64,000 nucleotides of DNA from Desulfobacterales bacterium (lineage in GTDB: Bacteria > Desulfobacterota > Desulfobacteria > Desulfobacterales > UBA2245): positions 1 through 64,000 of the forward strand of contig JAXGZF010000010.1 in assembly GCA_040771865.1 (NCBI GenBank). Direction: 5' to 3'. The position numbers were made by a program, and so were the translations under genes. Numbering within the stretch: the first letter of the stretch is position 1; every line of letters begins with the position of its first letter. The notes beneath the pieces were generated by a model. That model saw only the letters and a list, made by a program, of their open reading frames with translations, did no database searches and was not told the origin of the DNA. Below, in pieces: positions 7,025-59,140 of the stretch.

Positions 7025-7498
7025 ATGCGTGCAGGACTGGGATATGATGTGCACCGGCTGGTCGAAGGCAGAAAGCTGATGCTCGGCGGCGTTGAGATTC
7101 CCTTTGAAAAGGGGCTTCTCGGGCATTCCGACGCGGATGTTCTGCTTCATGCCCTGTGCGACGCCATGCTCGGCGCCGCAGGCCTGGGGGATATCGGCAT
7201 GCATTTTCCGGATACGGACAGCCGGTACAAGGACATCTCCAGTCTGGTTCTGCTCGAAAGCACCCGGGCGATGGTTCGAAAAACCGGGTACCGGGTGGTA
7301 AACATCGATGCCACGGTTTTTGCACAGGCCCCGAAGATCGCCCCGTATCGAATTGCCATTCAGAAATCCATCGCATCCGCATTGCGAATTGAAATCGATG
7401 CGGTGAACATCAAAGCCACGACCACCGAAGGCCTCGGCACGATCGGCGAAGGAGAAGGCATCGGCGCCATGTGCGTGGCGCTGCTGGAAAAACGATGA
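7025..7498 (+). CDS. ispF: 2-C-methyl-D-erythritol 2,4-cyclodiphosphate synthase
   Basis: GLGYDVH, GHSDADVLLHA, GDIGMHFPDTD, KATTTEGLG. Confidence 0.97.
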   Translation: MRAGLGYDVHRLVEGRKLMLGGVEIPFEKGLLGHSDADVLLHALCDAMLGAAGLGDIGMHFPDTDSRYKDISSLVLLESTRAMVRKTGYRVVNIDATVFAQAPKIAPYRIAIQKSIASALRIEIDAVNIKATTTEGLGTIGEGEGIGAMCVALLEKR

Positions 7499-7529
7499 AA
7501 CCGCACCGACTTGAAAGGATTTTCATGCG

Positions 7530-8945
7530 ATGACGCTTCGAGTTTACAATACCCTGGGAAGAAAAAAGGAAGTTTTTGAACCGATTGAACCCGGAAAGGT
7601 TCGAATGTACGTCTGCGGACCCACGGTCTATGATTCCTGCCACATCGGCCATGCCCGTTCCGTGGTGGTTTTCGACGTGATCGTCCGCTATCTTGAGGCT
7701 GCGGGATATGCGGTCACCTATGTGAGAAACTTTACCGATGTGGACGACAAGATCATCAAGAGGGCCAACGAGATGGGCATCGGCACGGCGCAGCTGGCCG
7801 AAAAGTTCATTGCCGAGTTTTACCGGGACATGGATGCGCTGAATATTCGGCGGGCGACCGTCGAACCCAGAGCCACCGAGCATATCGATGCGATCATTCG
7901 GGTTATTGAAAGGCTGTCTGCAAAAGGTCTGGCCTATGTCGTGGACGGGGATGTCTATTTTTCGGTGGCCGATTTTGCGGACTACGGAAAACTTTCCGGC
8001 AGAAAACTCGAAGACATGGAAGCCGGGGCCCGGGTGGATGTGGATGACCGAAAGAAAAACCCGTTTGACTTTGCCCTGTGGAAATCGGCCAAGCCCGGAG
8101 AGCCCAGCTGGGAAAGCCCCTGGGGCAGGGGGCGTCCGGGATGGCACATCGAGTGTTCGGCCATGAGCGGCGTCTTTCTCGGGGAAAGCTTCGATATTCA
8201 CGGCGGCGGCAAGGACCTGATCTTTCCGCATCATGAAAATGAGATCGCCCAGTCCGAGGGCGCATTTGGAAAACCATTCGCGAAATACTGGATTCACAAC
8301 GGATTTGTCAATATCAACCAGGAAAAGATGTCCAAGTCTCTGGGCAATTTTCTGATGATCCGGGACGTGCTCGAGTCCTATCATCCCGAGAGCGTCCGCC
8401 TGTTTCTGCTGTCCAATCATTACCGCAGTCCGATTGACTTCAGCGACAGGGCCATGGACGAATCCACCACGGCGCTGGATAAGATCTATGCGCTGATGGA
8501 GCGTTTCGAGGAGATTCCGGCGGCTGAAAACAGCGGCGCCCTCTGGAACAGCTTTCGAGAGGCCATGGATGATGACTTTAATACCGCCCGGGGGATCGGA
8601 ATCGTGTTCGATGCGGTCCGGAACCTCAACCGCCTTCTGGATGAAAACCTTGACCCGGCTTCCATGCCTGAACTGCGATCCGCCAAAGCCGATTTTCTGA
8701 AAATCGGAGACATTCTCGGCATTCTTCAGGAGCCGCCGAACCAGTATTTTGAAAAGAAGAAATCCCGGGGGCTTGAAAAGAGCGCGGTGGATCCCGAAAC
8801 CATTGACAAGCTCATCGCCGAGCGTCTGGCGGCCCGCAAATCCAAAAACTGGGCCAGAGCCGACGAGATTCGCGATTTTCTGGCCGGCCATAACATTGTG
8901 CTTGAGGATCGTCCCGAAGGCACGGTCTGGAAGATCAAAGATTGA
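7530..8945 (+). CDS. cysS: Cysteine--tRNA ligase
   Basis: CGPTVY, HIGH, GWHIECSAM, KMSKS. Confidence 0.98.
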   Translation: MTLRVYNTLGRKKEVFEPIEPGKVRMYVCGPTVYDSCHIGHARSVVVFDVIVRYLEAAGYAVTYVRNFTDVDDKIIKRANEMGIGTAQLAEKFIAEFYRDMDALNIRRATVEPRATEHIDAIIRVIERLSAKGLAYVVDGDVYFSVADFADYGKLSGRKLEDMEAGARVDVDDRKKNPFDFALWKSAKPGEPSWESPWGRGRPGWHIECSAMSGVFLGESFDIHGGGKDLIFPHHENEIAQSEGAFGKPFAKYWIHNGFVNINQEKMSKSLGNFLMIRDVLESYHPESVRLFLLSNHYRSPIDFSDRAMDESTTALDKIYALMERFEEIPAAENSGALWNSFREAMDDDFNTARGIGIVFDAVRNLNRLLDENLDPASMPELRSAKADFLKIGDILGILQEPPNQYFEKKKSRGLEKSAVDPETIDKLIAERLAARKSKNWARADEIRDFLAGHNIVLEDRPEGTVWKIKD

Positions 8946-51467: not shown

Positions 51468-52994
51468 TCATAATATTTCAGCTACAGGGATTGTGGCGAT
51501 ATCGGCAAATTTGAAGCTGGGCTGATCGTGTTCAGCGAGCATATCGGCCACGCGTGCAAAAGAATTTTCAGTAAAAACCGTTCTTTCTCCATTTTTCCTT
51601 TGAATGCCGAATCGAATTGAGGAAAGATCTTCGGTTCCCAACTTGTTGATTACGTTTTTCGTCACCCAGATAGAGCCGTAACGGGCGAAATCCGAGAGTC
51701 GAGCGGCATAGTTGATGGTGTCTCCCAGCGCGGTAAATTCAACAAATGAAGCGCAACGTATTGTTCCACAGAATTCCTGTCCCTCATTGATGCCGATGTT
51801 CAGGTAAAAATCATTAAGCCAGCCTTTGCGAACCCGCCACTTCTCGCTGAAAACCTTAATTCTTTCACGCATCTCTCTTGCGCAATTAATGGCATTCAAC
51901 ACATGGTTGCCGCCATTGGGACGATTGAGGAAATAATAAACGAACCCGTCTCCGGCGTGCTTCCCACAGATTCCATCGTGTTTTTCAATGCAGCCTGTCA
52001 GGGATTCCCACAACTGGTTGATCATCTCGAAATATTCGGCAGGAGGCAATTCTGCGCAGATTCGGACGGAATCCTGCAGGTCCGCCACGAGCACGCTAAG
52101 CGATTCCAAGGACGGAATTCGTTTCCGGAGCAGATCGGCGATGATATTGCGGCGCTGTCCCAAAAAATCCAGAACATGACCGGGGGATTCTTCAGCAGGC
52201 ACATATACAAGAAACAATCCCTCCCGAAAATGCACGCAATAAATGTGGTAGACCTGAGTGGTTTCATCCCTCAGCTCGAATCGCCCCCAAAGGTCACAGA
52301 TCTCCTTGTATTCCACCGCTACGGCATCATCATACAGGTTTTTCAGCAAATGGATTTCGCTTTCTCCGACCCCGGAAAACAAAGTGGGAATGTCGGTCCT
52401 GGGCAGGTTGTTTTTAACAACACTCAGATGGAGGCTAATGATTTGCTGCCAGTTTTGAACATGGTCATGAAATTGCCATTTGAAAAAAAGCTTGAAAATA
52501 TTGCGGGACGCCAGTTCTTCAATGGAGCGGAGAGGTTGATTGAAAATCTTTTCCTGAGCCGCGTCATTGATCCATTCAATCTCAAAATGGTGATTAATTA
52601 AGTAAGCTGGAACATTGAGTTTGTCGACGGTCAATGTCAGGCGGGAATCATCGCTCGTTGTTTCAGGAGCCTGAGTTGGAGAATTGGTTCTTCTGTCATC
52701 CGTATGACCGTCGTCATTTCTGTTTAAAGGATCGATTTTTTTAAAACGGGCCGCAATTTCATCAATGGTATGATTTTCCCGTTTCAACTGTTTGACCTTC
52801 GAAATTCTGTCAAGGACTTCCTTGGGAAAATAACCGATCTGTTTTACCCCTTTGATGGTTGCACCAGGATTTTTAACGATTGGACGCGGCAAAATTCCCA
52901 ATTTGATATAATTGTTGAGAGTGGCTCGGGAAATGTTTGACTGTGCTAAAACCTCCTTACTTGAAATCCATCCGCATAAATCTGTCGGATTCAC
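51468..52994 (-). CDS. Class III adenylate cyclase with N-terminal MerR-like HTH and PAS-like segment
   Basis: ISRATLNNYIKLGILPRP HTH; VADLQDS, KHAGDG, IGINEG, TALGDTINYAARL; GTG start after GGAGG. Confidence 0.88.
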   Translation of the reverse strand: MNPTDLCGWISSKEVLAQSNISRATLNNYIKLGILPRPIVKNPGATIKGVKQIGYFPKEVLDRISKVKQLKRENHTIDEIAARFKKIDPLNRNDDGHTDDRRTNSPTQAPETTSDDSRLTLTVDKLNVPAYLINHHFEIEWINDAAQEKIFNQPLRSIEELASRNIFKLFFKWQFHDHVQNWQQIISLHLSVVKNNLPRTDIPTLFSGVGESEIHLLKNLYDDAVAVEYKEICDLWGRFELRDETTQVYHIYCVHFREGLFLVYVPAEESPGHVLDFLGQRRNIIADLLRKRIPSLESLSVLVADLQDSVRICAELPPAEYFEMINQLWESLTGCIEKHDGICGKHAGDGFVYYFLNRPNGGNHVLNAINCAREMRERIKVFSEKWRVRKGWLNDFYLNIGINEGQEFCGTIRCASFVEFTALGDTINYAARLSDFARYGSIWVTKNVINKLGTEDLSSIRFGIQRKNGERTVFTENSFARVADMLAEHDQPSFKFADIATIPVAEIL

Positions 52995-53036: not shown

Positions 53037-53288
53037 AATTTTAACACTAAATTATACAGACCGTTATATCTGCCTAAATAAACCGTTTTAGTAGCCATGT
53101 CAAGCAATTTATAGTGTCCAAGCAGTATTATTTTGTTTTTATCACGAGTTGACATAAGACTGTACGTCCTACAGCCAAACAGTATAATTAAACTGGCTAT
53201 AACAAATTGTCGATTGCTGCCTTCTGGATTTTCTGATATAGAATCACTCTTTAATTACCATCAGAACCAAAGAGAATCGGAATTATAT

Positions 53289-53660
53289 ATGGATGCAAAA
53301 TACATCGGAGCCATTGTCGGCTTTATTTTGGGAATAGCTGGATATCCATTGGCCAAATTCTGGATAATACCTATCATAAGATTTAAACAGGTCCGGAGTC
53401 GGACGCTGAAATTGATGTCTTGCGTTGAAGACGCTTTTGACTTCGGCAGACTTCAGGAAACCATGGTTACTAAACTTAGACAGAACAGCATTCTGCTGAA
53501 CGAAAAGTATAATCGCTTACATCCTGCTTATCGGTCCTTTCTTGTAAATAAGGGCGTTTCGGTTAACGATGCGGGTAAACACCTATTAAAGCTTGCCAAT
53601 ACGCACAATTCAGAGCATGCCAGAAACCATGTTTCAAAAATTATAGACTGTCTAAAATGA
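53289..53660 (+). CDS. Hypothetical protein with N-terminal TM helix
   Basis: MDAKYIGAIVGFILGIAGYPL TM followed by a helical soluble domain; AT-rich. Confidence 0.55.
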   Translation: MDAKYIGAIVGFILGIAGYPLAKFWIIPIIRFKQVRSRTLKLMSCVEDAFDFGRLQETMVTKLRQNSILLNEKYNRLHPAYRSFLVNKGVSVNDAGKHLLKLANTHNSEHARNHVSKIIDCLK

Positions 53661-53674
53661 TGAACGGCTCCACT

Positions 53675-55060
53675 TTATCGGTATACGCGCATTCTTGCTT
53701 CCGCAGCGGATTTCAACACGTCAACCCGAATGTCTACATAGTCGAAAACCCGGGCTTGGGACTTTCCGGGCGCAGGCCTGAGAATCCTCCCGAGATATTG
53801 AAGAACTCTGCCGCTAAAACGTATGGGCGTTGTCATGAATAAGGTAGACAGATTACTGCAATCAAACCCTTCGCCTATCAGCTGACCGGTCGCCACAAGC
53901 GCCCTGGCCTGTCCGGAATTAATTCTGTCCAGAACCGTTCTTCGTTCCGAAGCCGACATGTCTCCGGTCAGAAGCTCCGCATCAATCTTATGTCCATAGG
54001 TCAGCAACGCATGAAGCGTTCGACAGTGGTTTTTACGATCGGATAGTATCAGACTTACTCCCGGACGAGATTGCACCTCCCGGGCCACATCCGATGCGAT
54101 CAGGCGGTTGCGCGCATCGTCCGCCACGAGTTCGGAAAGCATTCGACTGTATTCCTTTACCGGATCAAAATAGGGCTTGAATTCGGTTTCTCGGACCACG
54201 ACCTCGGCCTTTAACACGGCGCCGTCTTCGATCAGCTTCTCGGCATCCATTTCATGATGCACACCGCCCAGATGCCAGAAGATGAGACGGCTCAGCCCGT
54301 CCCTGCGCCAGGGAGTCGCGCTCAGGCCGAGCATGTATTTGCAGTCAAACCCGATGACCGCTTCGGTGAAAGTGCGGCTTGGAATTCGATGGCATTCATC
54401 TACGATCAGATGGCCGGTCTGCTTGAAAATTTCTTCCACGTGTCGATACAGGCTTTGAACCAGAGCAACGGTAATAATTTCACCCACCCGGCGTTTGCCG
54501 TCTCCAATAAAGCCGATCTCGTTTTCGGAAAGTCCCAGAAATTGTGCAATACGCTCTATCCACTGGAATGCCAGTTCCTTGGTGTGAACCACGATCAAGG
54601 CGGGCTGGCGCCGTACGGCGATCATGTAAAGCGCCATGATGGTTTTGCCGGAACCGGTCGGAGCGCTCAACGTGCCGAAATCTTTGGCCAGCATGTGGTT
54701 GACAGCGACCTGCTGATACGGTCTTAGACTTCCTGAAAAGCAATATTCCACCGGAGCCAACGCTCTCCGGCGATCAACAATTTCATAGGCTACGGAATGC
54801 CGGCGGCAAAGATGAATGATCTGTCGAATGCATCCTCGCGGAACGATCAGTGCATTACCGGCGCCCTTGGAGTAAAATTTAAGGATTTTGGGTGTGCCGC
54901 GGTTCCACCGCCCCATTCGGTGATTTTCTATCCATTTGGGGTTGTCAAAGCTGAGTCTTTCCATCACCTCGTTGCGAAAATTCTCCGGCATGCCGGTGAT
55001 CCTCAGCCTGTCTTTCAGCGTCAACTGGATGGAATGGACCTGTGTATGGTCTGTTGTCAT
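53675..55060 (-). CDS. SF2 DEAD/DEAH helicase (ResIII/XPB-like)
   Basis: LRPYQ, APTGSGKT, DECH, SAT, EGFD, QYLGRILR. Confidence 0.93.
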   Translation of the reverse strand: MTTDHTQVHSIQLTLKDRLRITGMPENFRNEVMERLSFDNPKWIENHRMGRWNRGTPKILKFYSKGAGNALIVPRGCIRQIIHLCRRHSVAYEIVDRRRALAPVEYCFSGSLRPYQQVAVNHMLAKDFGTLSAPTGSGKTIMALYMIAVRRQPALIVVHTKELAFQWIERIAQFLGLSENEIGFIGDGKRRVGEIITVALVQSLYRHVEEIFKQTGHLIVDECHRIPSRTFTEAVIGFDCKYMLGLSATPWRRDGLSRLIFWHLGGVHHEMDAEKLIEDGAVLKAEVVVRETEFKPYFDPVKEYSRMLSELVADDARNRLIASDVAREVQSRPGVSLILSDRKNHCRTLHALLTYGHKIDAELLTGDMSASERRTVLDRINSGQARALVATGQLIGEGFDCSNLSTLFMTTPIRFSGRVLQYLGRILRPAPGKSQARVFDYVDIRVDVLKSAAEARMRVYR

Positions 55061-55252
55061 CTTGATACCCCCTTGTTTGTCAAAAATTTAATACATCAAC
55101 GCCACGGTAAGAACAAGCATTCGAATCAAAAAGCAGTCTTTATCAGCAGTTGTTTTGGGGATGTTGCCATCCAATTGGACTGCGGCCAGTTTTGATAAAA
55201 AATTTTTCCATACAGAAGATGCGGGTCAATAATTCAGGTCATTGAGAGCCAG

Positions 55253-55368
55253 CCTTCAAGGCTTCTTTTGCCGATAGTGTTTGCCGCCAATCCCAGGCCC
55301 CGGGCATGCTCAACCTGATCGGATCACCTTCCAATATCGTGATCAGCGACGACCTGGTCGGCGCGGGC
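55253..55368 (+). pseudogene. Internal remnant of an SLC13/DASS permease gene
   Basis: PSRLLLPIVFAAN..GMLNLIGSPSNIVISDDLVGAG with a frameshift; aligns to 59526-59636. Confidence 0.75.
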
Positions 55369-55589
55369 AGAAGCCGTATTGATTTTGTTTTTTCCCTTTG
55401 GTAAAAAGAATATACATGAAAAAATCCTGCCTGCCGGGCACAGCGGCGAGCTTCGGGCAGTCAGAGTAAATCCCTTTATCGTTGTATTCCGCTATTCAGT
55501 TAAGCCAATGCCGACTGTTTCCCGAAGGGTCTTTGTGCAACAAAAGCCCGCCATCGCTTTTGAAAACAAGCCATATCAGGGAGGCATAC

Positions 55590-56531
55590 ATGAAGAAACC
55601 CCTTTTGGATTTGCTGATCTGCCCGGCCTGCCTGCCGGATGAAATTCAATTGAAGGAAACCATCAAAGAAGCCTCGGAGGGCGACATTTTCAAAGGAAAG
55701 TTGGCCTGCCCGCAATGCCGCAAGGCCTATCCCATCGAAAACGGGATCGCCAATCTAAATCCGAATGCATCTTTCGGCAAAACTTCGACCGAAAACAAAT
55801 ATGAAACTCCACAGGTGGTCTCCACCTACCTGTGGAGTCATTACGCGGATATTTTAAACGATGAAAATGCTTCGGACGCCTATTGCCGGTGGGCGGACCT
55901 GATGCAACCCCATGACGGCGTCGCGATCGACGCGGGGGCCGCAGCGGGAAGATTCACCTTCGAAATGGGGCAAAAAAGCGATCTCGCAATTGGCCTCGAC
56001 AATTCGCATGCCTTTATTCGAACGGCCAGAGAGTTGATGAAGCGCCGTGAAATAAGGATAGCGCTGAAACAGGAGGGAAACATTACCACCGATGTCGCCT
56101 TGTCCCTTCCCCCGGAATGGAACAGCGAAAAGGTTGAATTCATCGTCGCCGACGCCCTGGCGCTGCCTTTTCGAACCGACAGCGCCGCGTCGCTTTCCTC
56201 TTTGAACCTGATCGACAAGGTGCCGCGACCGATCCTGCACCTCGAGGAAATGAACCGGGTGGTCCGCAAGGAGGGCGCCCAGTTCCTCCTTTCAGATCCA
56301 TTTTCATGGTCCGAGGAGGCCGCCAGTGAAGCGGAGTGGCTGGGCGGCAAGACCAGCGGTCCTTATGCCGGCAGAGGCATTGACAATGTCATGTCTCTTC
56401 TGAACGGCAACCTGAACCGGCTGACTCCCAGATGGAACATAACGTCGTACGGGCATGTATGGTGGAAGATTCGTACGCATGCCAACCACTTTGAACAGAT
56501 TCGAAGCTGTTATGTAAAAGCCGGCAGGTAG
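55590..56531 (+). CDS. SAM-dependent methyltransferase with Trm112-like Zn ribbon; resembles the OvoA C-terminal mercaptohistidine N-methyltransferase
   Basis: CPAC..CPQC; YET..VSTY..HY; DAGAAAGRFTFE; GLDNSHAFI; KVEF..DA; NLID; DPFSWSEE...WLGG; GGAGG RBS before ATG 55590. Confidence 0.8.
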   Translation: MKKPLLDLLICPACLPDEIQLKETIKEASEGDIFKGKLACPQCRKAYPIENGIANLNPNASFGKTSTENKYETPQVVSTYLWSHYADILNDENASDAYCRWADLMQPHDGVAIDAGAAAGRFTFEMGQKSDLAIGLDNSHAFIRTARELMKRREIRIALKQEGNITTDVALSLPPEWNSEKVEFIVADALALPFRTDSAASLSSLNLIDKVPRPILHLEEMNRVVRKEGAQFLLSDPFSWSEEAASEAEWLGGKTSGPYAGRGIDNVMSLLNGNLNRLTPRWNITSYGHVWWKIRTHANHFEQIRSCYVKAGR

Positions 56532-56559
56532 TTCAACAAATCCAGAGGAGATCAACCCG

Positions 56560-58614
56560 ATGAAACTTGATACCATCTGTCGTTTATGTTCTTCCTGCTG
56601 CCCGATTGAAGCCGAAATCGAAAACAACCGGCTGATTTCCGCCAAAAGAAAATCGATTTTATCTGAAGACAAACAGCTGATCTGCCCGAAATTAAAAGCG
56701 GCCGCCGATATCGTCTATTCTCCCAAGAGGCTGAAAAAACCGCTGATTAAAGACGATGCCGGTAACTTTCAGGAGGCGTCCTGGGACCAGGCGCTCGATG
56801 CAGTTGCCAAACGGTTTCATTATTTTAAAAAAGAAAGCGGCGCTCAATCCGTCTGCTGGCTCAGAGGCATGGCGGCTGACTGGGGCGCGCCCTGGGACTA
56901 TGTCAATCGCCTGATGAACGCCTTTGGTTCGCCCAATGCCATCGGAAACGGTTCGGTCTGTCACGTGGGGCGCGAATTTGCCCATGCGATCACCTACGGC
57001 GCCATGACCCTCCCCCTGCTGCCAAGCGCCCGCTGCATCCTGGTCTGGGGCAAGAACGACCGGGACACCAATCCGGCCGCCGCCGAAGGCATTCTGCAGG
57101 CCCGACAAAACGGCGCAAAGCTGATTGTGGTCGAACCGATCAAAACCCACCTGGCAGCCAATGCCGACATATGGCTGCAGATCAAACCCGCCCATGACGG
57201 TCTGCTGGCCATGGCCATGATGCATGAAATCATCTCGCAACAACTATACGACGCTGATTTTGTCGGCAGATGGACCGTCGGCTTTGAAGCCTTGAAGCAA
57301 TCAGCGGAAAAATTTCCGGCCAAAAAGATCGCCAGGGATATCTGGCTGGATCCGCAAGCCGTTAAAGCAGCGGCCCGGCTGTACGCGACCGCCCGACCGG
57401 CCTGCATTGTCGATGGCAATGGTCTGGACATGCAACTGGACACTTTTGACGCGACCCGCGCGGTTTGCATGCTAAGAGCTCTGACCGGCAACCTGGACGT
57501 CAAGGGCGGAGACTTTATCCCGCAGCCGGTTCCGGCCCGCAATCTTCAGCTCAAAGACCGCCTGCCCGCCGGCATCAAGCCGATCACCGCCGACTACCCG
57601 CTGTTTAACGAATTCAGCGCGACTTGGGGCCATCACGTGCAGTCCTGCGTGATAGACGCGATTCTGGACGAAAAACCGTATCCAATCAGAATGCTCGTGT
57701 CGCAGTCCGGCAATCCGGCCGCATCGCTGATGGATTCCGGCCGCGTGATGCGTGCGCTTGGAAAACTCGATTTTCTGGTGGTCATCGATATGTTCATGAC
57801 GCAAACCGCTCAAATGGCCGATGTGGTGCTGCCTGCCTGCAGTTGTTTTGAAAAAACGCAGCTCAACCGCGCTTACCTGCGCAACAGCCTGGTTCGCATT
57901 CAGAATCAGGTCATCGAGCCGCTGGCGGACAGCTGGCCGGACTGGAAAATCATTTTTGAACTGGGCCGCAGAATCGGCCTGGAAAAAGAGTTTCCCTGGA
58001 AAAGCGTCGAGGAAGCCATCGATTATCAACTGGAGCCGGCCGGCATCACTGTGAAAATGCTGCGGGAAAATCCAGACGGCGTTCGGACCTCGGACATGCA
58101 GTTTGAAAAGCATAAAACCAGCGGATTCAGAACCCCCACGGGAAAAGTGGAATTTTATTCCGAAAAACTTGCGGTAAATGGATTTTCGTCCATACCTTAC
58201 GCCGACGGTTTTCTGGCAGAACCGATCAGCTTCAGCGATCAACAGGACCAGTATCCGATCATAGGCGTCAGCGGTGCCCGCGACAACCGCTTTACCCATT
58301 CCCAGTTTCACCAGATTCCATCGCTTTCGATGAACCAAAAGGGTTGCGCCGTTGATGTTCATCCAGACGATGCGAAGACGTACGGAATTGTCGACAACGA
58401 CAAGGTTCGGGTGGAAACCCCGCGCGGATGGATTGCGATGCCGGCCAGAATTTCCGAAGTGGTTCATTCGGGATCGATTCGAATCGCCTGGGGCTGGGGC
58501 GATGTAAATCCGGAATGCGGCCTGAACCGTTTGACCGACGACAACCGGCGCAACCCGATCATCGGTACGCCGTCAGGCCGAAGTTTTATGTGCCGGATCT
58601 CAAAGGTAGAATAA
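56560..58614 (+). CDS. Cytoplasmic Mo/W-bisPGD oxidoreductase (DMSO reductase family), stand-alone catalytic subunit
   Basis: CRLCSSCC...CPK 4Fe-4S motif; SWDQALD; GSVCH; VIDMFMTQTAQMADVVLP; VHPDDA; no Tat leader. Confidence 0.92.
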   Translation: MKLDTICRLCSSCCPIEAEIENNRLISAKRKSILSEDKQLICPKLKAAADIVYSPKRLKKPLIKDDAGNFQEASWDQALDAVAKRFHYFKKESGAQSVCWLRGMAADWGAPWDYVNRLMNAFGSPNAIGNGSVCHVGREFAHAITYGAMTLPLLPSARCILVWGKNDRDTNPAAAEGILQARQNGAKLIVVEPIKTHLAANADIWLQIKPAHDGLLAMAMMHEIISQQLYDADFVGRWTVGFEALKQSAEKFPAKKIARDIWLDPQAVKAAARLYATARPACIVDGNGLDMQLDTFDATRAVCMLRALTGNLDVKGGDFIPQPVPARNLQLKDRLPAGIKPITADYPLFNEFSATWGHHVQSCVIDAILDEKPYPIRMLVSQSGNPAASLMDSGRVMRALGKLDFLVVIDMFMTQTAQMADVVLPACSCFEKTQLNRAYLRNSLVRIQNQVIEPLADSWPDWKIIFELGRRIGLEKEFPWKSVEEAIDYQLEPAGITVKMLRENPDGVRTSDMQFEKHKTSGFRTPTGKVEFYSEKLAVNGFSSIPYADGFLAEPISFSDQQDQYPIIGVSGARDNRFTHSQFHQIPSLSMNQKGCAVDVHPDDAKTYGIVDNDKVRVETPRGWIAMPARISEVVHSGSIRIAWGWGDVNPECGLNRLTDDNRRNPIIGTPSGRSFMCRISKVE

Positions 58615-58840
58615 CGGCAAGTCCCTCTGTTCTGAAAAGGCCTTTCTAAACAGCTCCCCTTTCGACTCATCGAGGCTCGCAATCCCGAATTTATGGTATT
58701 CAGCGGCACAGTATGGATGTTCTCGTTCGGAATGATGAATCCATATGAAAAATTTTTCCATGTTGACTCCTCCGCTGGGTTCTGTTTGTGATAGGAAAAT
58801 CGGAAGGCATTTTTCAACCTCGTTCTCTCCGGATATTCTC

Positions 58841-59140
58841 ATGAAAAACAAAGACCATATTGTGCGCAAAGAGGCCCTGAAGGATTTGCGGTCTATACCG
58901 GGCGTGGGTAAAAGCATAGCGGAAGATCTTTGGGATATGGGTTTCAGATCGCCCGCCGACCTGAAAGGGCTTGATCCCGAGAAAATGTATCTTGAGCTTC
59001 AGAAGATTCAGGGCCGCCCGGTTGACCGCTGCATGCTGTATGTTTTCAGATGCGCCGTATATTATGCCTCGGAAAAAAATCATGATCTCGAACTGCTGAA
59101 GTGGTGGAACTGGAAGGACCGGAAGCTGCAGGAACCCTGA
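58841..59140 (+). CDS. Helix-hairpin-helix protein (Cdd1/TfoX-C-like)
   Basis: LRSIPGVGKSIAEDL, DPEKMY, DRCMLYVFRCAVYYA, KWWNWKD. Confidence 0.85.
   Translation: MKNKDHIVRKEALKDLRSIPGVGKSIAEDLWDMGFRSPADLKGLDPEKMYLELQKIQGRPVDRCMLYVFRCAVYYASEKNHDLELLKWWNWKDRKLQEP

Follow-up and report, generated by a model that had tools for sequence, protein, structure and literature searches.

Two adjacent genes of a Desulfobacterales genome encode a Zn-ribbon methyltransferase (gene 1), whose nearest kin are the C-terminal domain of OvoA (OvoA-C), OvoM and OvsM, and a cytoplasmic, stand-alone Mo/W-bisPGD enzyme (gene 2; bisPGD, bis-pyranopterin guanine dinucleotide), and this pairing is conserved across genomes. 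We tentatively propose that the two genes form a single operon and that the pair provides an oxygen-independent route from histidine to an N-methylated thio-imidazole amino acid, i.e., an ovothiol-like thiol. To these two statements, taken jointly, we assign a probability approaching, but not reaching, an even chance. An earlier note on this DNA had described the pair and offered the same interpretation; the observation of the gene pair is confirmed, and the interpretation is partly supported. We found no description of the gene pair or of its pathway in the literature.

The pair lies in the window, the whole stretch of 64,000 nucleotides that was analyzed, and has the following features. The clade names MoA and, below, MoB were coined in this analysis.

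55578..55584, + strand: Shine-Dalgarno-like AGGGAGG, 5 nt ahead of the gene 1 ATG, read directly in the sequence
55590..56531, + strand: gene 1, 313 aa, Zn ribbon (Trm112-like) plus OvoM/OvsM/OvoA-C-like SAM methyltransferase
55590..55769, + strand: N-terminal Zn-ribbon/Trm112-like domain, residues 1-60 (invariant Cys, Pfam, predicted fold)
55794..56528, + strand: class I methyltransferase domain, residues 69-313, with OvoA-C signature residues
56532..56559, + strand: spacer, 28 nt, with AGAGGAG at 56544-56550 before gene 2
56560..58614, + strand: gene 2, 684 aa, from ATG, cytoplasmic stand-alone [4Fe-4S] Mo/W-bisPGD enzyme, clade MoA
56578..56685, + strand: codons of the cluster cysteines C7, C10, C14 and C42 (N-terminal [4Fe-4S] motif), invariant in 48 orthologs
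56959..56961, + strand: codon of Cys134, predicted protein ligand of Mo/W (invariant in orthologs; alignment to acetylene hydratase and MES)

The ORF list gives gene 1 as 55482..56531 from a TTG; its true start is the ATG at 55590, because AGGGAGG lies at 55578-55584 and 313-aa homologs align from Met1. The coordinates confirmed the two-gene unit with a 28 nt gap (56532-56559) that had been described. The pair is flanked by a divergent helicase gene upstream and by genes for a Cdd1/HhH protein and a CitMHS/TrkA_C transporter downstream, and Pfam identified no FeS or membrane-anchor subunit among its immediate neighbors.

The methyltransferase encoded by gene 1

The Zn ribbon that the earlier note had read in gene 1 is real. 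Its cysteines C11, C14, C40 and C43 show no variation in an alignment of 64 sequences, and the N-terminus scores 30.1 bits against Pfam Trm112p (PF03966), above the cut-off of 22, and 54.8 bits against the archaeal Trm112 equivalog NF038101, under the cut-off of 77. In the AF2 model of gene 1 (pLDDT 92.1) this domain is beta-rich, with pLDDT above 90, and the ribbon is confidently seated on the methyltransferase domain (pTM 0.91).

OvoM, OvsM and OvoA-C are 5-thio- and 5-selenohistidine N-pi-methyltransferases. By HMM, sequence and predicted fold, they are the nearest kin of gene 1, and generic methyltransferases follow about ten orders of magnitude behind. The top NCBIfam match was TIGR04345 (ovoA_Cterm, E 2e-25), the next methyltransferase models having E values of at least 4e-4. 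The best solved relatives in a phmmer search of PDB were OvsM (7e-17), OvoM (1.1e-14) and OvoA (2.7e-14), followed by the next methyltransferase at 6e-5. Foldseek ranks 1-11 for the gene 1 model were all OvoA, OvsM or OvoM (E 4e-23 to 3e-19), with rank 12 at 4.8e-11, and the model superposed on OvoM and OvsM with TM 0.79-0.87 and rmsd 2.6-4.3 A. The earlier assignment of gene 1 to the OvoA-C type thus stands with respect to its closest relatives and its distance from generic class I methyltransferases, but gene 1 is no orthodox member of that group. Its score of 89.7 bits against TIGR04345 (model positions 1-218 of 242, residues 71-283) is below the cut-off of 170, true OvoA-C domains of the same phylum score 337-355 bits, and a long branch sets gene 1 apart from them in the tree.

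Conserved positions agree with this kinship. Half of the columns invariant in the gene 1 family (20 of 40) are equally invariant, and for the identical residue, in a set of 9 true OvoA-C domains; conversely, of the 84 columns invariant in those 9 domains, 20 keep their residue without exception across 28 gene-1-like proteins. The OvoA-C signature residues found in gene 1 are Y71, Y80, H84, G116, G120, R121, D137, E162, G163, N206, P237, W240, W250, G252 and G253, and the residues likely to line the substrate side are probably common to gene 1 and OvoA-C, judging from the alignment. All eight motifs previously listed for gene 1 are present in the order given, but the spacing had been misstated by 1-3 residues in YET..VS, KVEF..DA, EE...WLGG and IR....F. 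The C-terminal tail (approximately residues 288-313) is strongly conserved and is a property of the gene 1 family itself.

Since OvsM, which methylates selenohistidine, heads the PDB sequence matches of gene 1, the pair might carry out a selenium version of the same chemistry, drawing on a reduced selenium donor to make a 5-selenohistidine derivative similar to ovoselenol. We consider this quite improbable. The margin of OvsM over OvoM is small, Foldseek does not separate the two, and the loci show no linkage of the pair to selenosugar or SenB/SenC-type genes. Furthermore, sulfide is much more plentiful than selenide in the carrier organisms.

The Mo/W enzyme encoded by gene 2

Pfam assigned a Molybdopterin domain (162.4 bits) and a Molydop_binding domain (72.2 bits) to gene 2, and its Fe4S4 domain scored 22.6 bits, marginally below the cut-off of 22.7. 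Its N-terminal sequence contains no Tat motif or signal peptide and has no space for a Tat signal, because the protein begins with MKLDTIC and the first cluster Cys is residue 7. Gene 2 is without a signal peptide or a conserved redox partner gene, like its non-redox relatives acetylene hydratase and MES, and the earlier description of a non-exported Mo/W-bisPGD enzyme with no adjacent FeS or anchor subunit was correct. This stand-alone state does not prove non-redox chemistry, because ferredoxin-dependent Mo reductases of one subunit likewise lack partner genes.

Cysteines C7, C10, C14 and C42 align with the Cys4 motif of MES and of acetylene hydratase, Cys134 aligns with the metal-ligand Cys of both enzymes, and all five are unvaried in 48 gene 2 orthologs. 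Since 90% or more of a set of 117 other relatives also keep the cluster cysteines and the Cys ligand, these residues do not discriminate for MES. A kinship of gene 2 to MES, which the earlier note had entertained, was not borne out: gene 2 belongs to a clade of its own that is not specially related to MES and is separate from the MES clade in both trees (FastTree and IQ-TREE). Its identity to the MES module is 29% over a full-length alignment, and it has 8 of 79 MES-clade-specific columns, compared with an average of 8.9 (sd 3.1) among the 117 other relatives. More than 140 other clusters at 50% identity, all uncharacterized, score above MES for gene 2 and are also closer to it than acetylene hydratase. 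Among the best 150 representative matches of gene 2 there was no desulfurase-fused protein; four of these matches exceeded 900 aa, and the three that were checked all had other fusions. Gene 2 itself, as had been claimed, lacks a fused cysteine desulfurase, its 684 aa comprising only the Molybdopterin and Molydop_binding domains, to which the MES protein P0273 adds Aminotran_5 (Pfam). Because the gene 2 clade is separate from that of MES and is without MES-specific residues, we infer, rather than read directly, its role in sulfur transfer.

This position of gene 2 also suits a different function for the pair, to which we give a low but appreciable probability: the substrate would be a small molecule other than histidine, gene 2 would hydrate, hydroxylate or thiolate a compound that is unsaturated or heteroaromatic, in the manner of acetylene hydratase and the transhydroxylases, and gene 1 would methylate the product. 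Among solved structures, acetylene hydratase (2e7z) comes closest to gene 2 both in sequence (266.7 bits, 4e-78) and in fold (Foldseek E 1.5e-55, TM 0.90), and the gene 2 clade stands among the many uncharacterized clusters just described. Ten of the nearest paralogs of gene 2 in the phylum sample occur in mixed gene contexts (nitroreductase in two, a B12 radical-SAM gene in one, housekeeping genes in the rest). This reading would also accommodate the average level of MES-specific residues in gene 2 and the score of gene 1 under the OvoA-C cut-off. However, acetylene hydratase has an Asp immediately after its second cluster Cys, a residue that we take to be catalytic, and the corresponding position of gene 2 is Ser11, just after Cys10 and invariant in 48 orthologs. 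The likely substrate-side residues that gene 1 has in common with OvoA-C also speak for histidine, as do the other partners of the gene 1 family described below, an MES sister clade and a system with a Cys-His peptide.

The closest annotated families suggest instead that gene 2 would be a PhsA/PsrA/Arr-like reductase, soluble and supplied by ferredoxin, that acts on a sulfur, selenium or arsenic compound, whether inorganic or organic, with gene 1 methylating the reduced product for detoxification or volatilization. Thiosulfate reductase PhsA was the top NCBIfam match of gene 2, at 295.7 bits, although this is far under the cut-off of 694; PsrA was the second-best PDB sequence match, with a fold TM of 0.85; and carriers of the pair are mainly sulfur-cycling Desulfobacterota. 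Such a reductase appears improbable to us, given that gene 2 lacks both a Tat signal and neighbors of the PsrB/PsrC type and that the closest relatives of gene 1 are ring-nitrogen methylators. In addition, arsenite methyltransferases need several Cys, whereas gene 1, leaving aside the four cysteines of its Zn ribbon, has a single nearly invariant Cys, C307.

Distribution of the pair and other partners of the gene 1 family

Non-conservation of the pairing had been named in the earlier note as grounds for abandoning its proposal. The pairing proved to be conserved: a gene 2 homolog (55-88% identity) lies directly downstream on the same strand in 73 of 80 genome loci, with a gap of 10-245 nt, and contig ends explain 3 of the 7 loci without it. 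There is no conserved third gene, as no other gene cluster is common to more than 12 of 81 loci, and neither a conserved redox partner gene nor a linked sulfur-donor gene was found across the gene 1 loci. The methyltransferase is present and a gene 2 ortholog wholly absent in 2 of the 80 genomes. It adjoins hemB, without gene 2, in three genomes of one genus, and aconitase B in two OvoA-bearing genomes.

The earlier note had reported no non-heme-iron synthase in the window, which we confirmed and extended to the whole genome (2.98 Mb, 98.3% complete): it contains no match to the FGE-sulfatase domain PF03781, the catalytic domain of OvoA and EgtB, and none to the EgtD domain PF10017. Two NifS/IscS-like genes, possible sulfur donors, lie elsewhere in this genome. 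Of the sampled genomes, 12 have a gene 2 ortholog and 27 have EgtD, with no overlap between the two sets. Against the proposal, OvoA and the gene pair occur together in one genome (G160). The carriers are mostly Desulfobacterota and include the cultured strains Desulfobulbus elongatus DSM 2908 and Desulfogranum japonicum DSM 18378; some of them, going by their record titles, are not strict anaerobes (a Nitrospinaceae MAG and Thiotrichales/Gammaproteobacteria MAGs).

A distant branch of the gene 1 family (41-43% identity) is found directly upstream of another Mo enzyme of 735-741 aa, MoB, which is the sister of the EgtD-linked, desulfurase-fused MES (47-53% identity; FastTree support 100, IQ-TREE SH-aLRT 100). 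In a sample of 301 genomes of the phylum, all 3 unfused MoB adjoin a methyltransferase of the gene 1 family, and the fused MES gave 19 matches in 18 genomes, all 18 with EgtD, in open frames of 1132-1186 aa (one cut match excepted). Among metagenome MoB loci with enough upstream DNA to be counted, the methyltransferase lies 14-143 nt upstream in 34 of 37, or in 30 of 33 groups once near-identical loci are merged. A third context was observed in four of four further loci, where the methyltransferase is preceded by a B12 radical-SAM gene and a short ORF with 5-10 Cys-His-x-Pro-x repeats; such a peptide provides exactly a Cys sulfur beside a His ring. The MoB pairing and the radical-SAM pairing point the same way, namely to a thiohistidine reading of the gene 1 family.

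These pairings also bear on whether gene 1 might methylate a macromolecule (rRNA, tRNA or protein), like Trm112-activated methyltransferases or RlmA(I), with the Mo enzyme co-transcribed for an unrelated reason. The Trm112-like domain above the Pfam cut-off, the Zn-ribbon rRNA methyltransferase RlmA(I) as first non-Ovo fold match, and the retention of the methyltransferase without gene 2 in some genomes would fit such a role. However, RlmA(I) ranks about eight orders of magnitude below the weakest Ovo match, and chance co-transcription cannot account for the combination of 73 adjacent pairs in 80 loci and a separate association of the family with a second Mo clade in 34 of 37, which makes this explanation very improbable.

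Proposed pathway and comparison with known systems

In the ovothiol-like route that we favor, gene 2 would carry a [4Fe-4S] cluster and a Mo- or W-bisPGD cofactor held via Cys134 and, by analogy with MES, would transfer a terminal sulfido ligand to a carbon in the ring of either histidine or a methylated histidine. It would then be re-sulfurized in trans, either by the persulfide of a housekeeping cysteine desulfurase or by sulfide or polysulfide. Gene 1 would methylate a ring nitrogen in a SAM-dependent manner, as do OvoM, OvsM and the OvoA C-domain. The sulfurized carbon might be that of ovothiol (C5) or that of ergothioneine (C2), and methylation might follow sulfurization, as with OvoA, or precede it, as EgtD does for MES. 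The study of MES proposed attack on Mo(VI)=S by the imidazole ring, and raised the possibility that heterocycles are sulfurized by further, functionally uncharacterized Mo enzymes (PMC9516567).

If this proposal is true, the pair may give anaerobic sulfur bacteria an ovothiol-like sulfur antioxidant without oxygen. A broader generalization, which we regard as possible but doubtful, is that Desulfobacterota anaerobes and a few other lineages make ovothiol-type N-methyl-thiohistidine without O2, using at least three interchangeable sulfur-inserting modules around one Zn-ribbon OvoM-like methyltransferase: MoA, MoB (the unfused MES sister clade), and the B12 radical-SAM enzyme, whose substrate would be a ribosomally made peptide of Cys-His repeats. 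On that view, gene 2 would be a second, independently evolved Mo/W-dependent enzyme that forms C-S bonds, and the first for the ovothiol class.

Compared with OvoM, OvsM and OvoA-C (TIGR04345; PDB 9bxl-n, 9bxh-k, 8khq), gene 1 has the same class I methyltransferase fold at a sequence identity of 20-23%, and carries an additional Zn-ribbon/Trm112-like domain that OvsM and OvoM lack. Those enzymes work with the OvoA N-domain or OvsA, whereas the genome of the window has no PF03781 match and the gene 1 family never adjoins a non-heme-iron sulfoxide or selenoxide synthase, adjoining instead a Mo/W or B12 radical-SAM enzyme. The Zn ribbon matches Trm112 of the Haloferax complexes (PDB 6f5z, 6zxw), but Trm112 is a separate subunit in known complexes and is fused in cis in gene 1, whose methyltransferase domain belongs to the OvoM lineage and not to the RNA or protein methyltransferases known as Trm112-activated.

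Gene 2 and PsrA/PhsA are both Mo-bisPGD enzymes with a Cys ligand, and the handling of sulfane sulfur is a feature of PsrA/PhsA; these are exported by Tat and have FeS and membrane subunits, whereas gene 2 is without all three. Acetylene hydratase of Syntrophotalea (Pelobacter) acetylenica resembles gene 2 in being stand-alone, with an N-terminal cluster and aligned Cys ligands, but has Cys-Asp at the second cluster Cys where gene 2 has Cys10-Ser11. To our knowledge, acetylene hydratase has no methyltransferase partner. MES of Caldithrix abyssi, which functions with EgtD (Beliaeva and Seebeck 2022, PMC9516567), has the Cys4 motif and the Cys metal ligand in common with gene 2, and both are cytoplasmic, partner-less, and encoded directly downstream of a methyltransferase gene. 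The two differ in that MES has a C-terminal fused PLP cysteine desulfurase, which gene 2 lacks, and in that the methyltransferase paired with MES is the alpha-N-trimethylating EgtD, whereas that paired with gene 2 is OvoM-like and, by kinship, of the ring-N type.

The methyltransferase–Mo/W-enzyme unit and its conservation

The ORF listing and the translation placed the two genes of the pair as follows:

55590-56531, + strand: gene 1, a 313-aa Zn-ribbon and SAM methyltransferase protein, with an ATG start and a TAG stop
56560-58614, + strand: gene 2, a 684-aa predicted Mo/W-bisPGD enzyme, starting 28 nt after gene 1 and preceded by AGAGGAG

As listed, the gene 1 ORF opens at TTG 55482. ATG 55590 was taken as the true start because AGGGAGG lies ahead of it and because homologs align from Met1; the database holds more than 1,500 of these, nearly all of 309-313 aa. 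The gene pair described in the earlier note is confirmed. The eight motifs that the earlier note had described for gene 1 were all found in the translation and in the order claimed, but the spacing written into four of the strings was wrong by 1-3 residues.

An Rfam scan of 54900-58900 revealed no riboswitch, its single match being at chance level (E 0.97). Around the pair, 4 promoter-like sites were found versus 2.8 (sd 2.0) in shuffled sequence, none of them convincing, and 7 terminator-like sites versus 5.4 (sd 2.0). Three short contigs from RNA libraries, at least 99% identical to the pair, matched gene 1 (55894-56086) and gene 2 (57331-57523 and 58243-58549). They stem from two runs of metatranscriptome sequencing in a single study of an anaerobic digester, where DNA carry-over is possible, and none of the three bridges the two genes.

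Elsewhere in the window, two divergent genes may form a cyclic-nucleotide defence-like pair:

51468-52994, - strand: 508-aa protein combining a C-terminal nucleotide cyclase domain with a weak MerR/DUF4004-like match at its N-terminus
53133-53660, + strand: 175-aa protein with a weak match to PycTM, a Pycsar effector (E 0.007)

The earlier note had named conservation of the gene pair as a check on its proposal. We scanned one genome per species for gene 1 relatives and kept the best 80 loci of 236 relatives. The results showed that the pairing is conserved: in 73 of the 80 loci the methyltransferase gene is immediately followed, after 10-245 nt, by a co-directional gene 2 homolog of 55-88% identity. 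Among the seven misses, three had less than 500 nt of contig remaining, one genome carried its gene 2 ortholog on another contig, and two genomes had no ortholog, the best match being 34% identical. The gene 2 copy was fragmented or truncated in two of the 73 loci, L031, where the homolog is broken into three ORFs (7148-8623), and L048 from a Thiotrichales MAG, where it is cut to 176 aa (1317-1847). The methyltransferase is intact in both, and either partner decay or assembly error would account for the broken copies.

Clustering of the ORFs from the 80 loci and the window revealed no third conserved gene; the next-largest cluster, whose example ORF runs antisense within gene 2, covered 12 loci. 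A 550-aa protein (P0274) was considered as a methyltransferase-Mo enzyme fusion and rejected, as it reflects a frameshift after the SDPF motif with read-through across the spacer. No true fusion of the two proteins was found in the database searched.

The carriers were mostly Desulfobulbales, Desulfobacterales, Syntrophales, Desulfatiglandales, Desulfobaccales and Desulfuromonadales, together with a Nitrospinaceae MAG and Thiotrichales/Gammaproteobacteria MAGs. Cultured carriers are Desulfobulbus elongatus DSM 2908, D. rhabdoformis DSM 8777, Desulfuromonas sp. CSMB_57, Desulfogranum japonicum (DSM 18378), D. mediterraneum and D. marinum.

The genome of the window, which is 98.3% complete, yielded no match to EgtD or to the FGE-sulfatase domain, the catalytic domain of OvoA and EgtB. 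Of 301 genomes sampled from the phylum, 27 have EgtD, and the 12 that carry the pair are not among them. The pair therefore does not represent an ergothioneine pathway that has been split. In G160, one of the 12, a full-length OvoA is present alongside the pair. The genome of the window also contains two NifS/IscS-like genes away from the pair.

Relationship of gene 1 to the ovothiol and ovoselenol methyltransferases

Residues 2-52 of gene 1 matched the Trm112p Zn-ribbon in Pfam (30.1 bits, cut-off 22), which also returned generic methyltransferase domains. In NCBIfam, the top model by far was TIGR04345, the 4-mercaptohistidine N1-methyltransferase domain from the C-terminus of OvoA, which was matched over model positions 1-218 of 242 (E 2e-25) with a score of 89.7 bits, under the curated cut-off of 170; the next-ranked methyltransferase models were at E 4e-4 or worse. 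The best matches among PDB sequences were OvsM (7e-17), OvoM (1.1e-14) and the C-domain of full-length OvoA (2.7e-14), versus 6e-5 for the next methyltransferase. A structural comparison gave the same ranking: an AlphaFold2 model of gene 1 (pLDDT 92.1, pTM 0.91, built on 64 homologs) retrieved only OvoA, OvsM and OvoM at Foldseek ranks 1-11 (E 4e-23 to 3e-19), with TM scores of 0.79-0.87 normalised on OvoM/OvsM, and RlmA(I) followed at rank 12 (E 4.8e-11). The likeness to the OvoA C-terminal domain proposed in the earlier note was thus borne out by the HMM, PDB sequence and fold rankings, at a score below the curated cut-off.

We then aligned 28 members of the gene 1 family with nine true OvoA C-terminal domains from the same phylum (337-355 bits). 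Twenty columns held the same invariant residue in both groups; these included the SAM-site glycines, D137, Y71, Y80, H84, R121, E162-G163, N206, P237, W240 and W250-G-G. In a tree, a long branch separated the two groups. Its score below the cut-off places gene 1 outside the OvoA C-terminal family by the curated test, and gene 1 represents a distinct sister family of the ovothiol and ovoselenol methyltransferases.

Gene 2 and its position relative to MES

Pfam analysis of gene 2 identified the Molybdopterin and Molydop_binding domains, with the Fe4S4 domain slightly below its cut-off. All NCBIfam matches were far under their cut-offs, the top one being PhsA (295.7 bits vs 694). The closest solved relative by sequence was acetylene hydratase (266.7 bits), followed by the polysulfide reductase PsrA (207.8 bits). 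Acetylene hydratase was also the best fold match of the predicted model (pLDDT 89.2; Foldseek E 1.5e-55, TM 0.90), the formate dehydrogenases being eight orders weaker. In 48 orthologs, the predicted cluster ligands C7, C10, C14 and C42 are invariant, as is C134, which aligns with the metal-ligand position of acetylene hydratase and MES, the metallopterin-dependent ergothioneine synthase. After the second cluster Cys, acetylene hydratase has an Asp, whereas the gene 2 orthologs have an invariant Ser. No signal peptide was found in the translation.

Gene 2 and its orthologs make up a compact clade. They occurred in 12 of the 301 genomes of the phylum sample, at 56% identity or more and with at least 883 bits, and the next match fell to 36% and 463 bits. 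In a library of representatives of 1.84 billion proteins, gene 2's own cluster scored 762 bits, and the next score was 494 bits; at 300-494 bits lay well over 100 clusters, made up mostly of stand-alone enzymes of ~690 aa. An ESM Atlas search returned generic Mo-enzyme clusters only. No common gene context was found around ten near paralogs (34-37% identity). At one locus holding a near paralog (36%; L154, G026:C19, 2489-6372, minus strand), downstream of the paralog come a small 4Fe-4S protein and a 473-aa B12-binding radical-SAM enzyme, a further combination of a Mo enzyme with a radical-SAM enzyme.

For comparison with MES, we used a natural example from the phylum sample, P0273, a 1,166-aa ORF directly after EgtD with the domains Molybdopterin, Molydop_binding and Aminotran_5. 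A full-length alignment of gene 2 with the Mo module of P0273 showed 29% identity. No desulfurase-fused protein was found among the best 150 representatives for gene 2; four of these hits exceed 900 aa, and the three of them that were inspected all had other fusions. The gene 2 and MES clades were apart in two trees. An MES signature in gene 2 was looked for and rejected, gene 2 having 8 of 79 MES-clade-specific columns versus a mean of 8.9 (sd 3.1) in 117 other relatives. On these alignments and trees, gene 2 is not specially close to MES.

Other partners of the methyltransferase and the proposed function

Methyltransferases resembling gene 1 (70-114 bits to TIGR04345) were present in 29 of the 301 genomes, versus 12 with gene 2. 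Twelve of the extra loci were fetched: three pair the methyltransferase with an unfused sister clade of MES, which we call MoB, four with a radical-SAM enzyme, and five have no obvious partner.

At the MoB loci (L125, L126 and L131), a full-length methyltransferase including the Zn ribbon, 41-43% identical to gene 1, lies directly upstream of a 735-741-aa MoB. MoB is 48% identical to P0273 and 47-53% to fused MES, and grouped as the sister of MES with a FastTree support of 100; IQ-TREE gave SH-aLRT values of 100 both for the MoB clade by itself and for MoB with six MES, and 97 for the MES clade by itself. The hits from a search of the phylum sample with MoB separated cleanly into three unfused MoB (68-100% identity), all adjoining a methyltransferase, four members of a third unfused group described below, and nineteen fused-MES matches (47-53% identity). 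The fused matches have open frames of 1132-1186 aa, except for one that is cut, and lie in 18 genomes, each of which has EgtD. The three MoB genomes have no EgtD, and EgtD does not adjoin MoB in the loci. In a metagenome scan with MoB, which yielded 59 loci (L160-L218), 37 were informative (at least 60% identical, with at least ~940 nt upstream). In 34 of these, or in 30 of 33 groups once near-identical loci were merged, a co-directional methyltransferase gene precedes MoB by 14-143 nt. The two MES-type loci in the scan both had a fused desulfurase, and one had EgtD upstream. MoB and its methyltransferase may themselves constitute a second, so far undescribed thio-imidazole pathway. The M19 dipeptidase was rejected as a general partner of the Mo-linked loci, since among these loci only L131 and L176 have it next to the methyltransferase.

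A third unfused MES-like group, 41-44% identical to MoB, was seen in G246:C138, G169:C54, G025:C296 and G028:C86 (L146-L149), with neither a methyltransferase nor EgtD found near it at the four loci. In two of these four, the match is interrupted by a single in-frame stop (TGA in G169, TAG in G025), which could reflect selenocysteine, sequencing error or decay.

At the radical-SAM loci, L127 (G141), L128 (G087), L132 (G288) and L133 (G231), the methyltransferase (46-51% to gene 1) follows a 674-686-aa B12-binding radical-SAM enzyme, whose top NCBIfam match was the RiPP enzyme ApyD (250 bits vs a cut-off of 750) and which in L128 has a weak RRE-like C-terminus. In all four, the spacer between the two genes contains a small ORF with 5-10 Cys-His-x-Pro-x repeats, for example:

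L128 6549-6947, - strand: region between the radical-SAM and methyltransferase genes, with the Cys-His-x-Pro-x repeat ORF

No such ORF was found in the genome of the window or in any Mo-linked locus fetched. An M19 dipeptidase follows the methyltransferase in L127 and L128. The arrangement resembles a route in which thiohistidine would be made on a peptide template without oxygen.

The five loci with no obvious Mo or radical-SAM partner nearby adjoin hemB or aconitase B. The three hemB loci (L122, L123 and L124) belong to three genomes of one genus, a fourth genome of which keeps the pair with gene 2, and their methyltransferases nest within the gene-2-linked branch of the tree, which suggests that these genomes lost the gene 2 partner. 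Both genomes with the aconitase B arrangement (L129 and L130) also have a full-length OvoA.

The methyltransferase family, closest in kinship to the enzymes that complete ovothiol and ovoselenol, was found in three O2-independent contexts, with gene 2 as its commonest partner. The other two independently point at imidazole-sulfur chemistry, one through the sister clade of MES, the only Mo-dependent enzyme known to form a C-S bond, and the other through the Cys-His peptide. For gene 2 itself, we infer sulfur transfer from just the general fold, the Cys ligand and the absence of partner subunits, all of which single-subunit ferredoxin-dependent reductases share. In the simplest reading, gene 2 would fill the same role as the other partners and put sulfur onto a histidine-type ring, and gene 1 would methylate a ring nitrogen. 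The thiohistidine pathway proposed in the earlier note therefore gains partial and indirect support from the MoB and radical-SAM/Cys-His contexts, neither of which was visible to the earlier note. Gene 2 lies outside the MES clade.

In the parts of the sources consulted, every described ovothiol route begins with the O2-dependent iron enzyme OvoA, and the O2-independent thio-imidazole routes described, those of EanB and MES only, lead to ergothioneine (PMC9516567, PMC11030361, PMC12631010, PMC13674229). The literature searched, which excludes most subscription journals, contained no account of this pair or of an O2-independent route to ovothiol. The pair would be a new form of a known type of biosynthesis, that of thio-imidazoles. 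If it makes a methylated thiohistidine, an anaerobic origin would be added to the ovothiol class, the formation of C-S bonds by Mo/W enzymes would reach beyond MES, and one branch of a very large orphan group of cytoplasmic Mo/W enzymes would gain a function. The presence of the two-gene unit in cultured strains makes this directly testable.

The known systems differ in the order of their steps: EgtD works ahead of MES, the OvoA methyltransferase follows sulfurisation, and histidine is not methylated by OvsM (PMC11030361).
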